A model generated the notes under the pieces. It did not search any database. It was not told the origin of the DNA and saw only the letters and a program-made list of their open reading frames with translations. The translations under genes and the position numbers were made by a program. This document shows positions 601-64,000 of a stretch of DNA of 64,000 bases, one piece after another (the stretch's first letter is position 1; the number at the start of each line of letters is the position of its first letter). The stretch lies in assembly GCF_058153355.1 (NCBI RefSeq), contig NZ_CM177019.1. One strand, 5' to 3'.

Positions 601-3297
601 TTACTGCCAGCCGTAACGACGGCTATAGAACCCTTTCACCAGCTGGGTTAACGTCATATACCCTGCCAGAATCGCAACCAGCCACGGGAAATAGCTTAAC
701 GGCAGCGCCTGCAGTTGCAGATAACTGGCCAACGGCGAAAACGGCAATGCGATCCCGACTATCATCACAATCACGGTCATGATCATTAACGGCCACGATG
801 CACAGCTCTGAATAAACGGTACACGACGGGTACGGATCATATGCACAATCAGCGTTTGCGACAGTAAGCCCACCACAAACCAGCCCGACTGGAACAGCGT
901 TTGCGTTTCCGGCGTGTTGGCATGGAATACCCACCACATCAGGCAAAACGTCAGAATATCGAAGATCGAACTGATCGGTCCGAAGAAGATCATAAAGCGC
1001 CCCAAATCCGCCGGATTCCAACGCTGCGGCTTTTGAATTTGCTCGTCGTCGACGTTATCAAACGGGATCGCCACCTGTGACACATCGTACAGCAGGTTCT
1101 GGATCAGTAAGTGTAAAGGCAGCATCGGCAGGAAGGGCAAGAAAGCACTCGCCACCAGCACGCTGAACACATTACCGAAGTTAGAACTCGCCGTCATTTT
1201 TATGTATTTCAGCATGTTGGCGAAAGTCCGGCGTCCTTCAATAACCCCCTCCTCCAGCACCATCAGGCTTTTTTCCAGCAGGATGATATCAGCCGCTTCA
1301 CGGGCAATATCTACCGCACCGTCCACAGAAATGCCGATATCCGCAGCGCGTAAGGCGGGCGCATCATTAATACCATCGCCCATAAAGCCAACCACATGCC
1401 CTTCGCGCTTTAGCAAGGTCACGATGCGTTCTTTATGCATCGGCGTCAGGCGAGCAAACAGCGTGGTGCGCTGTGCAAGATTTGCCAGTTCGTCGTCAGA
1501 TAGCGTTTCAATATCACTACCAATGACCACCTCTCCCGCGTCCAGTCCCACTTCATGGCACACTTTCGCCGCCACTAACTCGCTGTCGCCAGTAAGGATT
1601 TTCACGGTAATGCCACTCGCTTTTAATGCCTTCAGTGCCGGAGCTGTTGTCTCTTTCGGCGGATCAAGGAAAGCAATATATCCTTCGAGGATCAGGTCGG
1701 ATTCATCCGCCCGCTGGTAATCCCCTTCACGTGCTGGCAGGTATTTCGTCGCCACCGCAACCACGCGCAGCCCCTGACGATTCAGCGTATCAGTAACGCG
1801 CTTAATCTTACGCAGTATGATGTCATCAAGCGGCACAATCTCACCATTGTGACGCACCTGCGAACACACATTGAGGATTTCCTGCAATGCGCCTTTGCAA
1901 ACCAGTTGATGATGTTCGGTATTCTCTGCCACTACCACCGACATCCGGCGACGCTCGAAATCAAACGGAATCTCATCAATTTTTTGCCAACGACTGGCCA
2001 GCGAGCGCGCTGACTCTTCATCCGTACCTTCGAGCACCGCTGTATCAAGCAGGTTTTTAAGTCCGGTCTGATAATGACTGTTCAACCACGCGCTATGCAG
2101 CACGCGTTCGCTGGTTTTACCGGAGATATCGGTATGATTCTCCAGCACAATTTTATCCTGCGTCAGGGTGCCGGTTTTATCAGTGCACAGAATATCCATA
2201 GCGCCAAAGTTCTGAATGGCATCCAGATGTTTGACGATCACTTTCTGTTTCGACAGCTTTACGGCACCACGCGCCAGCGTCGAAGTGACAATCATCGGCA
2301 ACATTTCTGGCGTTAAGCCTACCGCGACCGAAAGTGCGAACAGTGCCGCTTCCCACCAGTCACCTTTGGTGTAACCGTTGATCAGCAACACCACCGGAGC
2401 CATCACCAGCATAAAGCGAATCAGCAGCATACTGACGCGGCTAATCCCTTGCTGAAAGGCATTCGGCTCGCTTTCCTGCTCACTAACACGCCCCGCCAGT
2501 TGACCAAACCAGGTGTTGGCTCCTGTAGCAATCACCATTGCTTGTGCCGTGCCGCTCACCACGGTGGTGCCCATAAAACACAGGGTGTCGCACTCCAGCG
2601 GATTGCTGTGCTCCGGCTGGCGAGTGGTAGCAGCTTTTTCCACGGGCAGAGACTCACCGGTTAACGACGCCTGAGCAACAAACAGATCCCGCGCCTGCAA
2701 GATACGTAAATCTGCCGGGATCATATCCCCCGCCGCCAGTTTTATAATATCGCCGGGCACTAGTTGGTCTATCGGAATTTCCAGCCAGCCATTTTCACCT
2801 TTATCGTTAATTACGCGCAGTACCGTCGCGGTATTACTGACCATCGCTTTCAGGGCATCTGCCGCTTTGGTGGAACGAGCTTCCTGAATAAAGTTCAGCA
2901 ACGTAGAAATAGCGACCATTAGCGCGATAACACCTGCGGCAAATAAATCTTCCGTGGCGTAAGAAATAGCACCGAGAATGGTGAGCAAAATATTAAAGGG
3001 GTTGCGATAGCAGACCCATAAATGCACCCACCACGGCGACGGTTGTTGCGCGGGTAATTTATTTTCACCATGTTGTTCGCGGGCAGATTCCACTTCCGCC
3101 TGATTTAACCCTTCCGGATGGGTATTGAACGTTTTCCATAATTCCTGTTCTGGCATCACCGCCATTTTCAGGCAATGCGCACTTAAGGACGGCGGGACCG
3201 CCGTATTCACTGTCTGCTGCGCGCCAGGCAATGGATCGCGATGAACCAGACGGGAAGGTAAATGGCGAATGAGCCGGGTAAAAATTTCTTTAAACAT
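601..3297 (-). CDS. mgtA: Mg2+-importing P-type ATPase MgtA
   Basis: 898-aa ORF with the P-type ATPase phosphorylation motif DKTGTLT, the TGES motif and a GDGxNDxP hinge; length and sequence match MgtA. Confidence 0.97.
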   Translation of the reverse strand: MFKEIFTRLIRHLPSRLVHRDPLPGAQQTVNTAVPPSLSAHCLKMAVMPEQELWKTFNTHPEGLNQAEVESAREQHGENKLPAQQPSPWWVHLWVCYRNPFNILLTILGAISYATEDLFAAGVIALMVAISTLLNFIQEARSTKAADALKAMVSNTATVLRVINDKGENGWLEIPIDQLVPGDIIKLAAGDMIPADLRILQARDLFVAQASLTGESLPVEKAATTRQPEHSNPLECDTLCFMGTTVVSGTAQAMVIATGANTWFGQLAGRVSEQESEPNAFQQGISRVSMLLIRFMLVMAPVVLLINGYTKGDWWEAALFALSVAVGLTPEMLPMIVTSTLARGAVKLSKQKVIVKHLDAIQNFGAMDILCTDKTGTLTQDKIVLENHTDISGKTSERVLHSAWLNSHYQTGLKNLLDTAVLEGTDEESARSLASRWQKIDEIPFDFERRRMSVVVAENTEHHQLVCKGALQEILNVCSQVRHNGEIVPLDDIILRKIKRVTDTLNRQGLRVVAVATKYLPAREGDYQRADESDLILEGYIAFLDPPKETTAPALKALKASGITVKILTGDSELVAAKVCHEVGLDAGEVVIGSDIETLSDDELANLAQRTTLFARLTPMHKERIVTLLKREGHVVGFMGDGINDAPALRAADIGISVDGAVDIAREAADIILLEKSLMVLEEGVIEGRRTFANMLKYIKMTASSNFGNVFSVLVASAFLPFLPMLPLHLLIQNLLYDVSQVAIPFDNVDDEQIQKPQRWNPADLGRFMIFFGPISSIFDILTFCLMWWVFHANTPETQTLFQSGWFVVGLLSQTLIVHMIRTRRVPFIQSCASWPLMIMTVIVMIVGIALPFSPLASYLQLQALPLSYFPWLVAILAGYMTLTQLVKGFYSRRYGWQ

Positions 3298-3560
3298 AAG
3301 GAGTCCCTCCGCACTGTCTGAAACAGTGCAGAAATGTCTTCAGGCGTGGCGAAGCCTTACCTGAAGGTAATAAAGCTGAGCTGGGACGTTAAAACGTCAC
3401 GGCCTTACGCATCCGGTAACGCCGTGAAAAGACGGACTTACCGGAAAAGTTTTAATCTCCGTCGAGGGAGAGGCGTGGGATCAGGTTCCATATAACCTCC
3501 GGTAAGTGAAAAAAGCGCCGCAAATAATAAGGAGAATCCAATAATATTCGTGGCATTTAT
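3298..3560 (-). promoter_or_regulatory. mgtA 5' leader (Mg2+/proline-responsive attenuator region containing mgtL)
   Basis: Long untranslated region between the PhoP-box promoter and the mgtA start codon that contains the proline-rich leader ORF mgtL; the upstream boundary is approximate. Confidence 0.65.
3438..3491 (-). CDS. mgtL: mgtA leader peptide MgtL (17 aa, [17 protein letters not shown])
   Basis: Reverse complement of 3438..3491 is atggaacctgatcccacgcctctccctcgacggagattaaaacttttccggtaa. The ORF track merges it into a spurious 68-aa ORF (3438..3644). Confidence 0.85.
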
Positions 3561-3584
3561 GGCGATATAATACCTACTGGCAAC

Positions 3585-3601
3585 TAAACCAACGATAAAC
3601 C
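3585..3601 (-). promoter_or_regulatory. PhoP box (direct repeat GGTTTA-N5-GGTTTA) of the mgtA promoter
   Basis: The minus strand reads GGTTTATCGTTGGTTTA, matching the (T/G)GTTTA-N5-(T/G)GTTTA PhoP consensus, followed by a TATTAT -10-like hexamer. Confidence 0.6.
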
Positions 3602-3673
3602 AGACTTTACCCATTGCTGAATGCACGGGTAAAGTTAGGCTCAAATAATGAAACGCAATTACGGGACAACAGG

Positions 3674-4621
3674 ATGCAAAATCGGCTGACCATCAAAGAC
3701 ATCGCGCGCTTAAGCGGCGTGGGGAAATCTACGGTTTCCCGAGTGCTGAATAACGAAAGCGGCGTGAGTCAGCGCACGCGCGAGCGCGTGGAAGCAGTGA
3801 TGAATCAGCATGGATTTTCCCCTTCCCGCTCTGCGCGCGCTATGCGTGGGCAAAGCGATAAAGTGGTCGCCATCATTGTTACCCGTCTGGATTCGTTGTC
3901 AGAAAATCTCGCCGTCCAAACCATGCTGCCAGCGTTCTATGAACAAGGTTACGACCCGATCATGATGGAAAGTCAGTTTTCTCCGCAATTAGTTGCCGAA
4001 CATTTGGGGGTGCTGAAACGGCGTAATATCGACGGCGTAGTGCTGTTCGGTTTTACCGGCATAACCGAAGACATGTTAGCCCACTGGCAGTCATCGCTGG
4101 TTCTGCTGGCGCGTGACGCAAAAGGCTTTGCTTCGGTCTGTTATGACGACGAAGGGGCAATCAAAATCCTGATGCAACGGCTGTATGACCAGGGGCATCG
4201 TAATATCAGTTATCTCGGCGTACCGCACAGTGACGTGACGACCGGTAAGCGACGTCACGAAGCCTACCTGGCGTTCTGCAAAGCGCATAAACTGCATCCC
4301 GTTGCCGCTCTGCCAGGCCTTGCGATGAAGCAAGGCTATGAGAACGTAGCAAAAGTGATTACGCCTGAAACTACCGCGTTACTGTGCGCAACCGACACGC
4401 TGGCACTTGGCGCAAGTAAATACCTGCAAGAGCAACGCATCGACACCTTGCAACTGGCGAGCGTCGGTAATACGCCGTTAATGAAATTCCTCCATCCGGA
4501 GATCGTCACCGTTGACCCAGGTTACGCCGAAGCTGGACGCCAGGCGGCCAGCCAGTTAATTGCGCAGGTAACCGGGCGCAGCGAACCGCAACAAATCATC
4601 ATCCCTGCCACCCTATCCTGA
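3674..4621 (+). CDS. treR: Trehalose operon repressor TreR (LacI family)
   Basis: N-terminal helix-turn-helix (TIKDIARLSGVGKSTVSRVLNN) and LacI-type periplasmic-binding fold; start placed at ATG 3674 (315 aa) rather than the ORF-track start 3614. Confidence 0.93.
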   Translation: MQNRLTIKDIARLSGVGKSTVSRVLNNESGVSQRTRERVEAVMNQHGFSPSRSARAMRGQSDKVVAIIVTRLDSLSENLAVQTMLPAFYEQGYDPIMMESQFSPQLVAEHLGVLKRRNIDGVVLFGFTGITEDMLAHWQSSLVLLARDAKGFASVCYDDEGAIKILMQRLYDQGHRNISYLGVPHSDVTTGKRRHEAYLAFCKAHKLHPVAALPGLAMKQGYENVAKVITPETTALLCATDTLALGASKYLQEQRIDTLQLASVGNTPLMKFLHPEIVTVDPGYAEAGRQAASQLIAQVTGRSEPQQIIIPATLS

Positions 4622-56683: not shown

Positions 56684-57097
<414 letters not shown>

Positions 57098-57406
57098 TTA
57101 TTCAGCCTCCTGTCTGGGTCAGCCGAATCCCGGGGAGGCAAGGAACGTGTTAAAGGTCGGCTGAAAAATGACGCGTTATAGTACTGACATACCCCGCTAA
57201 ACTCAAGGCCAGCCGACAAATAAATCTCATCTTTCACCAAATCGTACTAACACGCTGATTTGAAGTTCATCACACCTCATCATGGTGTTTTTTTGAACAA
57301 CTGCATCAGAAATGGTCACCATCCACTTCTTTATCATTGATTAAAATTAAATCAGAAGATCACCACAAGAGGAGAGCACACAAAGTCAGCCGTCGAGGAG
57401 GTATCT

Positions 57407-57682
57407 ATGTTCAGCCGTGTTTTAGCCCTTCTGGCTGTGCTTTTGCTAAGTGCAAATACATGGGCAGCCATTGAAATTAATAACCACCAGGCCAGAAATA
57501 TGGACGATGTGCAAAGCTTAGGCGTGATTTATATCAATCATAATTTCGCCACTGAAAGTGAAGCACGTCAGGCATTAAATGAAGAGACAGATGCGCAGGG
57601 CGCAACGTACTACCATGTGATTCTGATGCGGGAACCGGGGAGTAACGGCAATATGCACGCCAGCGCGGATATTTATCGCTAG
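57407..57682 (+). CDS. yjfY: Small periplasmic protein YjfY (YdgH/BhsA/McbA-like, DUF1471)
   Basis: 91-aa product with signal peptide MFSRVLALLAVLLLSANTWA; GGAGG RBS. Confidence 0.9.
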   Translation: MFSRVLALLAVLLLSANTWAAIEINNHQARNMDDVQSLGVIYINHNFATESEARQALNEETDAQGATYYHVILMREPGSNGNMHASADIYR

Positions 57683-57722: not shown

Positions 57723-57746
57723 GCCCCCTTCTCAGGGGGCTTTTTT
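57723..57746 (+). terminator. Rho-independent terminator downstream of yjfY
   Basis: gccccc-ttctca-gggggc followed by tttttt. Confidence 0.6.
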
Positions 57747-57755
57747 ATGCGCCAT

Positions 57756-58307
57756 TCAACGAATAACGACTTCCGGATCCGGCTCATGAGTAATGCGATT
57801 ACGTAAGTCGCGGCGCATAATTTCTATTATCCAGAACCAGAAAATGTGCCCAAGGATTTCAGATGCATATTCGTCAAAAGGCAATTGAGTGAGCGGCGGC
57901 GTTAAATTCAGCGCCGGGCAAAATATACCGTGGACTGCCACTGTCACAATAAGCCCTGCTAATATCCCCTGCCATAATTTCACTTTCGGGAAAATTTCCG
58001 CGACCACACAATACCCTATCGCAAAAACCAGTGAGAAAATGATATGCGTCACCATCACCGGGTTGATAATATGTTCCGAGAATGTATACACAGTTTGGGT
58101 TGGGTCGATCCCTAAATAATCCCGTAGAAAGATATACGGCGGATTAAACTCATCGCGACCACCGGAAAATGTGCGCGGTGGCAAGGGAACTTCCGCTCCC
58201 CATTTAACAAATGCTGAAATAATTCCTGAAAGTACACCCACAAGTAACGCAACGCCATAACGGCGACGCTGCGGATCCGTTCTGACAAACAATCCGTTGA
58301 TAGCCAT
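57756..58307 (-). CDS. YagU-like inner-membrane protein (DUF1440)
   Basis: 183-aa product [47 protein letters not shown]...[26 protein letters not shown], strongly similar in pattern to the YagU family. Confidence 0.8.
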
Positions 58308-58403
58308 AAAAACACCTGTTGTTTATACGATTTTTTAACAGAAACGGCCCCGGAATCAGACCAATTACATCCCGCAGGAGGTAATAATTCCGGGGCGCAC
58401 TGC

Positions 58404-59090
58404 TTACTTCTGCCCGTAATAGGCGTTAGGACCGTGCTTACGCATGAAGTGTTTATTCATGAGATAGCTGTCGATGTGATTCAGTTGTGGGTTAATGCCG
58501 CGGGCAATCCACGCCATTTTCGCCACTTCTTCCATTACCACCGCGTTATGCACCGCATCGTGAGCATCTTTCCCCCAGGCGAATGGCCCGTGCTGATACA
58601 CCACAATTCCCGGCGTATGCAGCGGCTCGGCGTCACCCAGCGTTTCGATAATCACTTTGCCAGTGTTTAGCTCGTATTCCCCCTGCACTTCTTCTTCGCT
58701 TAACCCGCGCGTACAGGGGATATCGCCAAAGAAGTAGTCAGCATGCGTGGTGCCTAATGCCGGGATAGCCAGCCCCGCCTGCGCCCATGCGGTGGCATGC
58801 GTGGAATGGGTATGGACAATGCCACCAAGCGACGGATAACGACGGTAGAGTTCAAGATGCGTCGCAGTGTCGGAAGACGGACGATACTCCCCTTCCACCA
58901 CCTTGCCGCTCATATCAACCACCACCATATCGTCTGCTTTCATGGTTTCGTAGGCGACACCGCTGGGCTTGATCACCACCAGCCCGCGTTCGCGGTCAAT
59001 GGCGCTGACGTTACCCCAGGTAAAGGTCACCAGCCCGTAACGCGGCAGATCCATGTTGGCTTCAAATACCTGCTGTTTCAGCTTTTGCAT
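58404..59090 (-). CDS. ulaF: L-ribulose-5-phosphate 4-epimerase UlaF
   Basis: 228-aa class-II aldolase/epimerase; start overlaps the ulaE stop (TAATG). Confidence 0.95.
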
Positions 59091-59944
59091 TATGTCGCCT
59101 CCACCATGCCTGCTTTAGCCATGCGCGCTTTCACCCAATCACGCGCTTTCGCCACTTCTGCCGCCGGGTCTTCCGCCGTTTCGCTCCACATCTCAATCAG
59201 GTACGGCCCGCAATAACCACTCTGTTTGAGCGTTTCGAAGCAACGTTCGAAATCCACTACACCTTCCCCAAACTGGACGTTTTTGAAGACGCCTGGTTTG
59301 GTGTCTTTCACATGCACCGCGACGATATGCCCGATCCCGGCCTGCAACTCCATCTGCACGTCGTTATCCCACGCCGACAAGTTGCCGATATCCGGGTAGA
59401 GCTGGAACCACGGGTTGTTAAGATAGTGCGCGTAACCCAGCGCCTTGCTGATGGAGTTCATCAACGGGTAATCCATGATCTCCATTGCCAGCGTCACCTG
59501 CGCGCGGCTCGCCATCTCAACGCTCTCTTTCAGGCCGTCACGGAAACGACGACGCGTTTCGTTATTGGCTTCCTGATAGTAAACGTCGTAGCCCGCCAGT
59601 TGGATCACGCGAATACCGACATCCTGGGCGAACTGGATAGCTTTGCGCATAATCTCCAGCCCCTGCGCCCGCACTGCGTCATCTTCGCTGCCCAGCGGGA
59701 AACGACGATGAGCAGAAAGGCACATGGATGGTACGCGCACGCCGGTTTCAACAATCGCGTTCACCAGCGCCAGACGCTGCTCGCGGCTCCAGTCAAGGCG
59801 CGAGAGGCGATCGTCCGTTTCATCTACCGACATCTCGACAAAATCGAAGCCTAACGTTTTTGCCAGTTGCAGCCGTTCCAGCCAGCACTCCCCGGCGGGG
59901 AGCGCTTTTTCGTAGATGCCAAGCGGGATTTGTTTGGACAACAT
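59090..59944 (-). CDS. ulaE: L-ribulose-5-phosphate 3-epimerase UlaE
   Basis: 284-aa xylose-isomerase-like TIM-barrel protein [42 protein letters not shown]... Confidence 0.95.
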
Positions 59945-59953
59945 ATCCGCTCC

Positions 59954-60604
59954 TTAGCCCCACAGTTCGGCGATGGAACGTTTGAACTGACGCGCGGCTT
60001 CAACCGGAGAGGCGGCATCACGGATACTACGCCCAGCGATAAACACATGAATCGGAATGCCTTTGAACAGCGGCAGGTCTTCCAGCGCCAGGCCACCGGT
60101 GACGGTGACTTTGAAGCCCATATCGGAAAGACGTTTGATCGCGGTGATATCCGCTTCGCCCCACGCCACGCCTGCGGCCTGCGCGTCACGGCTGCGGTGA
60201 TAAACCACCTGCTGGATACCTGCGTCGCGCCACTGCTGCGCCTGTTCCCAGGTCCAGTAACCGGTCAGTTCGATCTGCACGTCGCCATTAAACTCTTTTG
60301 CCACGTCCAGCGCGCCTTTGGCGGTGTTGATATCTGCACAACAAATCACGGTCACCCAGTCAGCGTTAGCTTCAAAGCACATACGAGAAAGGATTTTGCC
60401 CGCATCGGCGATTTTGGCGTCTGCCAGCACGATTTTGTGCGGATAAAGCGCTTTCAGATCGCGAACCGCACGCACACCTTCGCCCACGCACAGAATGGTG
60501 CCCACTTCGATAATGTCGACTTCTTCGGCAATCAGGCGAGTGGTTTCGTAGGCGCTAGCCATAGTCTGGTTGTCCAGCGCGACTTGCAACATCGGTAATG
60601 ACAT
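59954..60604 (-). CDS. ulaD: 3-keto-L-gulonate-6-phosphate decarboxylase UlaD
   Basis: 216-aa product from ATG 60604 ([36 protein letters not shown]...); the ORF-track extension is rejected. Confidence 0.95.
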
Positions 60605-60617
60605 TTTCAATTCCTTC

Positions 60618-61082
60618 TTAAGCAGCCGCGTTGGTGCGGTCAATGAGATCCAGGACTTCCTGCTCGGTACGGCAGGCGCGTAAACGGTCGAAATTCTCTT
60701 CATCTTCAAACAGGTTGACGATCTGCATGATGCCCACTTCCTGATGCGTGTTGGCATCGACCGCCGCCATCGTGATGAGGATATCCACCGGGTCGTTATC
60801 TTCGTGGTTGAACTCCAGCGGCTTTTTCAGCGTCACCAGTGCAAAACCCGTTTTCTTAACGCCCTCTTCCGGGCGACCATGCGGCATTGCCAGGCCCGGT
60901 GCGAGCACAAAGTACGGACCGTGCTGTTCAACCGCATCCAGAATCGCCTGGTAGTAACGCGGCTCGACAACATCCGCCGCCACCAGCAGGTCAACGCCGA
61001 TTTTTACGGCTTCCTGCCAGGTATTGGCTTCCGCCTGTAAACGGATGGATTTATTCTCAGCCAGCGAATCACGTAATTTCAT
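60618..61082 (-). CDS. ulaC: PTS ascorbate-specific EIIA component UlaC
   Basis: 154-aa product [33 protein letters not shown]... Confidence 0.95.
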
Positions 61083-61091
61083 AGCGCGCCC

Positions 61092-61397
61092 TTACTTCAC
61101 GTCCTGCGGGAAATGTTCTTTGATCACTTCCAGCAGTTTCGGGCCAAAGTCAGCAGGAGAGAGCATGTTGCGCACGCCAACGACATATTTGTTGCCGGTC
61201 ACGGTGATTTCGCCCGCGATGTGCGTAGAAGCGATGATGATATCCGCGCCGCTCAACTCGCTTTTGTATTCACCAACCGCGCAGCTGTTTACCGTGTGGT
61301 CGATGTTCGACTGGGTTAAAAACTGGTCCACTTTCATTTTCATGATCATGGAACTGCCTTGTCCGTTGCCACACACAGCCAGAATACGTACGGTCAT
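61092..61397 (-). CDS. ulaB: PTS ascorbate-specific EIIB component UlaB
   Basis: 101-aa product from ATG 61397 ([23 protein letters not shown]...); phosphorylatable Cys in the CGNGQGSS motif. Confidence 0.95.
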
Positions 61398-61412
61398 AAT
61401 CAAAACTCCTTA

Positions 61413-63164
<1,752 letters not shown>

Positions 63165-64000
63165 ATGAGTAAAGTGAAAAGTATCACCCGTGAATCCTGG
63201 ATCCTGAGCACTTTCCCGGAGTGGGGTAGCTGGTTGAATGAAGAAATTGAACAAGAACAGGTAGCTCCTGGCACATTCGCGATGTGGTGGCTAGGCTGCA
63301 CCGGGATCTGGCTGAAATCGGAAGGTGGCACCAACGTTTGCGTCGATTTCTGGTGTGGTACTGGCAAACAAAGTCACGGTAACCCACTAATGAAACAGGG
63401 TCACCAGATGCAGCGCATGGCTGGCGTGAAAAAACTGCAGCCAAACCTGCGCACCACCCCGTTTGTTCTTGATCCGTTTGCGATTCGCCAGATCGACGCA
63501 GTACTGGCAACTCACGATCACAACGATCATATCGACGTCAACGTCGCTGCTGCCGTGATGCAGAACTGCGCTGATGACGTGCCATTTATCGGGCCGAAAA
63601 CCTGCGTGGATTTGTGGATTGGCTGGGGTGTGCCGAAAGAACGTTGCATCGTGGTCAAACCGGGCGATGTCGTTAAAGTGAAAGACATTGAAATTCATGC
63701 CCTTGACGCGTTTGACCGTACTGCACTGATCACTTTGCCTGCCGATCAAAAAGCGGCTGGCGTACTGCCAGACGGCATGGACGATCGCGCGGTAAACTAC
63801 CTGTTCAAAACGCCGGGCGGTACCCTGTATCACAGTGGCGATTCCCACTACTCTAACTACTATGCGAAGCACGGTAACGAGCATCAGATCGACGTGGCAT
63901 TAGGTTCATACGGTGAAAACCCACGTGGTATCACCGACAAAATGACCAGTGCTGATATCCTGCGTATGGCAGAAGCGCTGAATACAAAAGTGGTTATCCC
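63165..64000 (+). CDS. ulaG: L-ascorbate-6-phosphate lactonase UlaG (metallo-beta-lactamase fold), 5' portion; continues beyond the window
   Basis: ATG at 63165 opens a frame to the window end ([51 protein letters not shown]...HDHNDHID). It is missing from the ORF track because no stop codon lies in the window. Confidence 0.9.

Follow-up and report, generated by a model that had tools for sequence, protein, structure and literature searches.

Introduction

The closest described relative of the gene reported here is yagU of Escherichia coli K-12, which is located between paoA and ykgJ. For a yagU::kan strain, survival at pH 2 was reported as 19% versus 70%, about 3-fold lower (PMC1626474), and external acid was found to raise yagU expression 16-fold, an effect that internal acidification did not produce (PMC2270276). 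Upstream of yagU, binding of CpxR was detected by ChIP-exo (PMC7657598), and OmpR was found to bind there as well (PMC5217608). The DUF1440 family to which YagU belongs is small, with only 264 clusters at 50% identity matching at E <= 1e-3 out of 1.84 billion representatives, and it features neither a solved structure nor a structural relative in the PDB. Our search of the literature on DUF1440 returned no functional paper; mentions of yagU in papers on honeybees and on sRNAs turned out to be irrelevant.

The second described system bearing on this locus is the ascorbate utilisation operon ulaABCDEF, whose last gene is ulaF. In K-12 MG1655, ulaF and yjfY are adjacent and separated by a 129-bp spacer without any gene between them, which confirms an adjacency that a preceding sequence-only reading of the DNA studied here had given; MG1655 was also checked for the gene described below and does not carry it at this position. 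That reading had noticed a YagU-family gene between yjfY and ulaF and recorded it as an additional copy and a small accessory difference. Herein, we describe this gene, its predicted product and its distribution, and we weigh the explanations for its presence in some strains and its absence from others.

The gene and its surroundings

In the window, by which we mean the whole analysed stretch of 64,000 nucleotides from contig NZ_CM177019.1, an intact open reading frame of 183 codons with an ATG start occupies 57756..58307 on the minus strand, exactly as the sequence-only reading had it. It encodes the short form of a DUF1440/YagU-family inner-membrane protein that matches PF07274 (DUF1440) from end to end, covering profile positions 1–135 of 135 with 153.7 bits and an E value of 3.9e-45, above the curated gathering cut-off of 34.7 bits. 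A Shine–Dalgarno sequence AGGTG is found at 58313..58317 (−), with 5 nt between it and the start codon at 58307, and alignment shows it kept at the same position in E. coli W and Escherichia whittamii. No NCBIfam model covers the protein, and the PADLOC defence models gave no match to the gene. Reading frame, PF07274 match and matches of the flanking genes together bear out the assignment of a 183-aa YagU-family gene between yjfY and ulaF. We take 57756..58307 (−) to be intact and functional, encoding a small inner-membrane protein of this family. Its exact product is present on 404 public contigs and equals a RefSeq DUF1440 entry of the MULTISPECIES type assigned to Escherichia; gene and protein are already annotated in public databases and constitute an ordinary strain difference.

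Downstream of the gene lies its convergent neighbour yjfY (57407..57682, +), which encodes a DUF1471 periplasmic protein as judged by a YdgH/BhsA domain match. A terminator scan located the intrinsic terminator of yjfY, consisting of GCCCCCTTCTCAGGGGGC followed by TTTTTT, at 57723..57746 (+), 10 nt past the stop codon of the DUF1440 gene, which likely shares this terminator. An identical element is present in the spacers of K-12 type. On the other side, ulaF (58404..59090, −), identified as L-ribulose-5-phosphate 4-epimerase by the corresponding NCBIfam model with 509 bits, is positioned directly upstream of the DUF1440 gene in the same orientation, with 96 bp between the two.

Most of this 96-bp interval is filled by a hairpin just 3′ of ulaF (58347..58396, −), for which RNA folding gave −33.9 kcal/mol at a z score of −3.8. 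Its stem is formed by GCCCCGGAAU and AUUCCGGGGC and contains an internal AUUAC/GUAAU helix. The U tract after the hairpin is weak, reading CGUUUCUGUU in the window and CUCUCCAG in strain W; strains of K-12 type have CGUUUUUC. Base changes in K-12-type strains, Salmonella and Pseudocitrobacter compensate one another so that the stem persists, and conservation extends to the motif GGGAUGUAAUUGGUC in the loop. As judged from its sequence, the hairpin probably acts as terminator or stabiliser of the ula operon, perhaps leaking transcription into the DUF1440 gene. Its conservation exceeds what a plain terminator needs, and it could be an RNA-processing site, a protein-binding site or a small RNA derived from the 3′ untranslated region. 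A search of the intergenic regions against Rfam returned no family for the hairpin; apart from STnc280, which scored below threshold where the yjfY terminator lies, it reported only the RpsF leader (RF02893, 110 bits) at 57077..57161 (−), which lies upstream of rpsF and is ordinary.

Relation to YagU and predicted protein structure

Alignment with K-12 YagU showed the window protein to be 57% identical, with a gap of 21 residues after the first helix, an identity that by sequence comparison is far beyond chance. A low-stringency blastn search of the 5,426 complete E. coli genomes detected the window gene at 95% identity or more in 603 of them and a yagU match of about 66% identity in most, and the number of matching places exceeded the number of matching genomes by 596. 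Since the records of sampled carriers of the DUF1440 gene contained a further match resembling yagU, these 596 extra places indicate that most of the 603 carriers described below hold both genes. With its separate locus, its limited identity, the missing 21-residue loop and the coexistence with yagU in most carriers, the gene is a paralogue of K-12 yagU and not its orthologue; the sequence-only reading had likewise called it a paralogue.

Conservation was assessed in an alignment of 43 sequences reaching down to about 26% identity. P44, G114, G118, H126 and E150 are invariant therein, and K35, G37, E39, P43, P56, P57, H88, Y99, P131 and S149 are nearly so; all of these family-wide conserved residues are present in the window protein. 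An AlphaFold2 model built on the same alignment (pLDDT 88.9, pTM 0.85) predicts helices at residues 17–39, 83–105, 107–132 and 144–173, with a short helix and a beta-hairpin in the loop between helices 1 and 2. Hydropathy reveals three strongly hydrophobic segments and a fourth, amphipathic one, and positive charges are found at the N-terminus, in the turn between helices 2 and 3 and in the C-terminal tail. With 183 aa, the modelled fold and this hydropathy profile, the protein falls among small (about 170–215 aa) polytopic inner-membrane proteins, its membrane location being predicted. An N-in/C-in topology agrees with the hydropathy profile and the placement of charges; in it, the protein would be a bundle of four helices whose N- and C-terminus are both cytoplasmic. 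A Foldseek search of the model against the PDB gave nothing below an E value of 1, and a sequence-profile search of the PDB gave one chance-level match with an E value of 0.25.

In this arrangement, K35, E39, H88, H126, S149/E150 and usually H154 would be situated next to the conserved PPR/NPP loop, close to where the helices end on the periplasmic side, a placement that derives from the predicted model and the positive-inside rule. The model suggests that these conserved polar residues form a periplasm-facing site for binding protons or metal. Through such a site, the window protein would help the inner membrane and envelope to cope with acid or envelope stress. This role, via a protonatable or metal-binding site, is borrowed from a protein of 57% identity, and we put it forward tentatively, as a possibility with clearly less than even prospects. 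The link of YagU-family proteins to acid tolerance, to which the sequence-only reading had pointed, holds for K-12 YagU itself (PMC1626474, PMC2270276), whereas its transfer to the paralogue in the window is a matter of analogy.

Distribution in E. coli

Strain variation at the locus, which had been proposed for checking, is pronounced: megablast with the gene alone detected it at 95–100% identity in 603 of 5,426 complete E. coli genomes. Carriers thus account for about 11% of these genomes, and about 89%, K-12 among them, are without the gene. The 129-bp spacer of K-12 type was found essentially at full length in 4,820 of the same genomes. Both groups together make up 5,423 of the 5,426 genomes, so that two states of the locus can be distinguished. 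E. coli W is among the carriers, its protein being WP_000985137.1, and the names assigned by PGAP in carriers are "YagU family protein" or "DUF1440 domain-containing protein". The allele of the window is rarer, with only nine complete genomes at least 99% identical in DNA, and it is 96–97% identical to the common W-type allele.

In E. coli W, ulaB (3913..4218 of our locus L061) is annotated as a pseudogene with an internal stop, so that the ascorbate PTS may be defective in this strain, a well-known one among those with the DUF1440 gene.

Origin of the two locus states

Outgroups were scanned with one genome per species, which yielded 53 loci with orthologues. Searching with the window neighbours by tblastn revealed the order ulaE-ulaF-DUF1440-yjfY-rpsF in E. 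whittamii and Pseudocitrobacter faecalis, and ulaE-ulaF-DUF1440 in two species each of Hafnia and Budvicia. A Salmonella protein of 92% identity is encoded in the same slot between ulaF and yjfY, and in Salmonella with one common YjfY protein, which covers 87 contigs, the gene was present between yjfY and ulaF in all ten places listed. STM4389 was considered as the Salmonella locus tag of the DUF1440 gene and rejected, as it denotes yjfY. The 90% cluster of the exact window protein also includes members from Salmonella enterica and Pseudocitrobacter, and a neighbouring cluster contains members from Salmonella bongori and Shigella sonnei. When the orthologues were placed in a neighbour-joining tree, its branching broadly agreed with taxonomy, with the ula-linked copies in two separate clades. 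Because the same slot is occupied in Salmonella, Pseudocitrobacter and E. whittamii, presence of the gene at this site predates the split of Escherichia and Salmonella, and the K-12 state represents a loss. As judged by gene order, the ancestral state of the ulaF-yjfY interval in the Escherichia/Salmonella lineage is the one with the DUF1440 gene.

Comparison of carrier and non-carrier spacers places the loss between two direct repeats of 7 bp, TTTTTTA, whose left copy lies at 57741..57747 and whose right copy lies 590 bp away at 58331..58337. The 590 bp between both runs are missing from non-carriers, and the short form retains the yjfY terminator and the hairpin proximal to ulaF. The predicted deletion product GGGGGCTTTTTTAACAGAAACGG and the observed junction of K-12 type GGGGGCTTTTTTTGAAAAACGG differ at about four positions, so that the breakpoints are approximate. 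The junction is identical in four non-carriers from different backgrounds, and one of these four, EC42405, combines a ula operon 99% identical to the unusual haplotype of the window with a K-12-type junction. Our reading of these alignments is that the non-carrier spacer would be one old deletion allele that has been moved between ula haplotypes by recombination.

The ula operon of the window together with ulaG (58404..64000) represents a divergent haplotype, whose identity is about 94% to K-12, to W and to almost every E. coli and about 95% to E. whittamii. Only 25 of 5,426 genomes match it at 95–99%, the best being EC42405 with 98.5%. The segment from rplI to yjfY is 98–100% identical to K-12, which places the change from high to low identity between yjfY and ulaF. 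The ula operon of strain W is a mosaic as well, with 94–99% identity to K-12.

Where it has been kept, the gene is under strong purifying selection. The window and W alleles differ by 18 synonymous and two non-synonymous changes, and dN/dS amounts to 0.03 versus W as well as versus E. whittamii and to 0.025 versus Salmonella. The reading frame is intact in every carrier inspected. As 89% of E. coli manage without the gene, it is dispensable in many niches.

Taken as a whole, these data describe an ancestral, functional YagU paralogue that was kept by about 11% of complete E. coli genomes and lost elsewhere through a single 590-bp deletion, and we hold this reading to be probable with good confidence. 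The wording of an additional copy and an accessory difference in the sequence-only reading implies the opposite, namely a gain, and outgroups with the gene in the same slot as well as the deletion shared by non-carriers point to loss instead. A recent horizontal insertion between yjfY and ulaF in the lineage of the window might be concluded from the absence of the gene from K-12 and 89% of E. coli, from its GC content of 46.6% versus 55% for ulaF and from the flanking 7-bp direct repeat, which is mistakable for a target-site duplication. However, the supposed duplication is simply where the yjfY terminator has its T run, the GC content of yjfY is just as low (46.7%), K-12 yagU equals the DUF1440 gene in this respect, and the gene tree agrees with taxonomy. 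The 590-bp segment contains only the coding sequence and its ribosome-binding site, with no integrase, transposase or inverted repeats; with no mobility genes, no true target-site duplication and occupied outgroup slots, it does not have the makings of an inserted mobile element. A recent gain is thereby largely refuted by outgroup synteny, and we consider it extremely improbable. Equally hard to credit is a non-functional relic on its way to loss, despite most E. coli having lost the gene already, since the frame is intact here and in all carriers inspected, the ribosome-binding site is good and the low dN/dS holds both within E. coli and to Salmonella; the substitution pattern, as far as sequence comparison reaches, contradicts such decay.

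An early loss followed by re-introduction, in which the 11% regained the gene by homologous recombination from other Escherichia, deserves more attention. It draws on the strongly mosaic ula region, where the ula identities to K-12, W and E. whittamii given above contrast with 98–99% for rpsF-yjfY, and on the uncoupling of gene presence from ula haplotype, for which EC42405 is an example. On the other hand, carriers possess several alleles that are 3–4% away from that of the window, and the gene region of W is only about 93% identical to the E. whittamii sequence, which makes E. whittamii no obvious donor. As a long-standing polymorphism of presence and absence, shuffled by recombination, explains the same data with one step fewer, we judge re-introduction unlikely.

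Expression and linkage to the ula operon

A sigma-70 scan placed no promoter site in the 96-bp interval upstream of the DUF1440 gene; the two sites it reported are both inside the DUF1440 coding sequence. Inspection of the same 96 bp by eye for a CpxR box (GTAAA-N5-GTAAA) gave no more than GTAAT-N5-TGATT, a poor match that lies within the loop of the hairpin and was rejected. Lacking a recognisable sigma-70 promoter of its own and positioned 96 bp behind ulaF and a hairpin with a poor U tract, the gene probably receives partial read-through from the ula operon, and it would be transcribed at least in part in this way. Partial read-through from the ula promoter is plausible on the basis of this arrangement, although the very stable hairpin could end most ula transcription, in which case an unrecognised promoter would be needed. 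In Hafnia, the spacer between ulaF and the DUF1440 gene is 26 nt long and contains a ribosome-binding site without any hairpin.

Linkage to ula extends over Escherichia, Salmonella, Pseudocitrobacter, Hafnia and Budvicia, and about 45 of the 53 species-level loci are unlinked. The neighbours of the unlinked orthologues in other genera are unrelated and variable, with no common partner, examples being a PTS IIB gene in Klebsiella and NagK in Providencia. In Citrobacter (our loci L008–L012 and L054, about 1300..4540), the orthologue follows a co-oriented DAACS-type symporter and a MetC/MalY-like C–S lyase and adjoins a divergent LysR regulator, a context kept in six species and unrelated to ula.

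These data also bear on a dedicated seventh component of the ula system, dealing for instance with some effect that taking up or fermenting ascorbate has on the membrane or periplasm, and not acting as a general stress protein. Such a component would be consistent with the co-oriented adjacency of ulaF and the DUF1440 gene across Enterobacteriaceae, Hafniaceae and Budviciaceae, with the operon-like spacer of Hafnia and with the lack of an own promoter in the window. However, most orthologues are found away from ula, and the unrelated neighbours at about 45 of 53 loci argue against an ascorbate-specific function. Furthermore, K-12 and most E. coli possess the ula genes without the DUF1440 gene, in Escherichia and Salmonella a strong hairpin stands between ulaF and the DUF1440 gene, and conserved gene order in Enterobacterales could by itself explain the adjacency. 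We consequently regard a dedicated ula component as improbable. The same low expectation, roughly one of a long shot, applies to the specific version in which the short form of DUF1440 would be a seventh, co-transcribed ula gene whose periplasmic His/Glu site handles a by-product or stress of ascorbate use; if true, strains would differ genuinely in physiology, as most E. coli have lost this gene.

Significance and comparison with known systems

As a discovery, the gene matters little, being annotated in hundreds of RefSeq genomes. Its value lies in the direction of change: K-12 displays the derived state, and with K-12 as the point of reference the gene would wrongly be listed as an accessory gain. 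Common strains such as E. coli W and Salmonella harbour in it a second conserved and constrained member of the uncharacterised YagU family, by which single knock-outs of yagU in such strains may be buffered. The recurrent position behind ulaF furthermore offers a cheap and testable lead on the function of DUF1440.

Compared with YagU (b0287), the window protein belongs to the same PF07274 family and displays the same helix layout, and both have common conserved motifs including SEI(F/L)GH as well as a nearly identical cytoplasmic tail. In contrast, YagU has 204 aa versus 183 aa for the window protein, which is without the insert of about 21 residues after helix 1 and hence without the two cysteines that this insert holds in YagU. 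Compared with ulaABCDEF, the DUF1440 gene is located directly downstream of ulaF and co-oriented with it, an adjacency that is kept in several genera and operon-like in Hafnia, whereas the operon as defined in K-12 excludes the gene and a stable hairpin separates it from ulaF in the window. The closest counterparts are the DUF1440 entries from the ulaF-yjfY interval of E. coli W, Salmonella enterica, E. whittamii and Pseudocitrobacter, which are orthologues in the same slot and orientation, are 87–99% identical to the window protein at the amino acid level and show no difference of substance from it.
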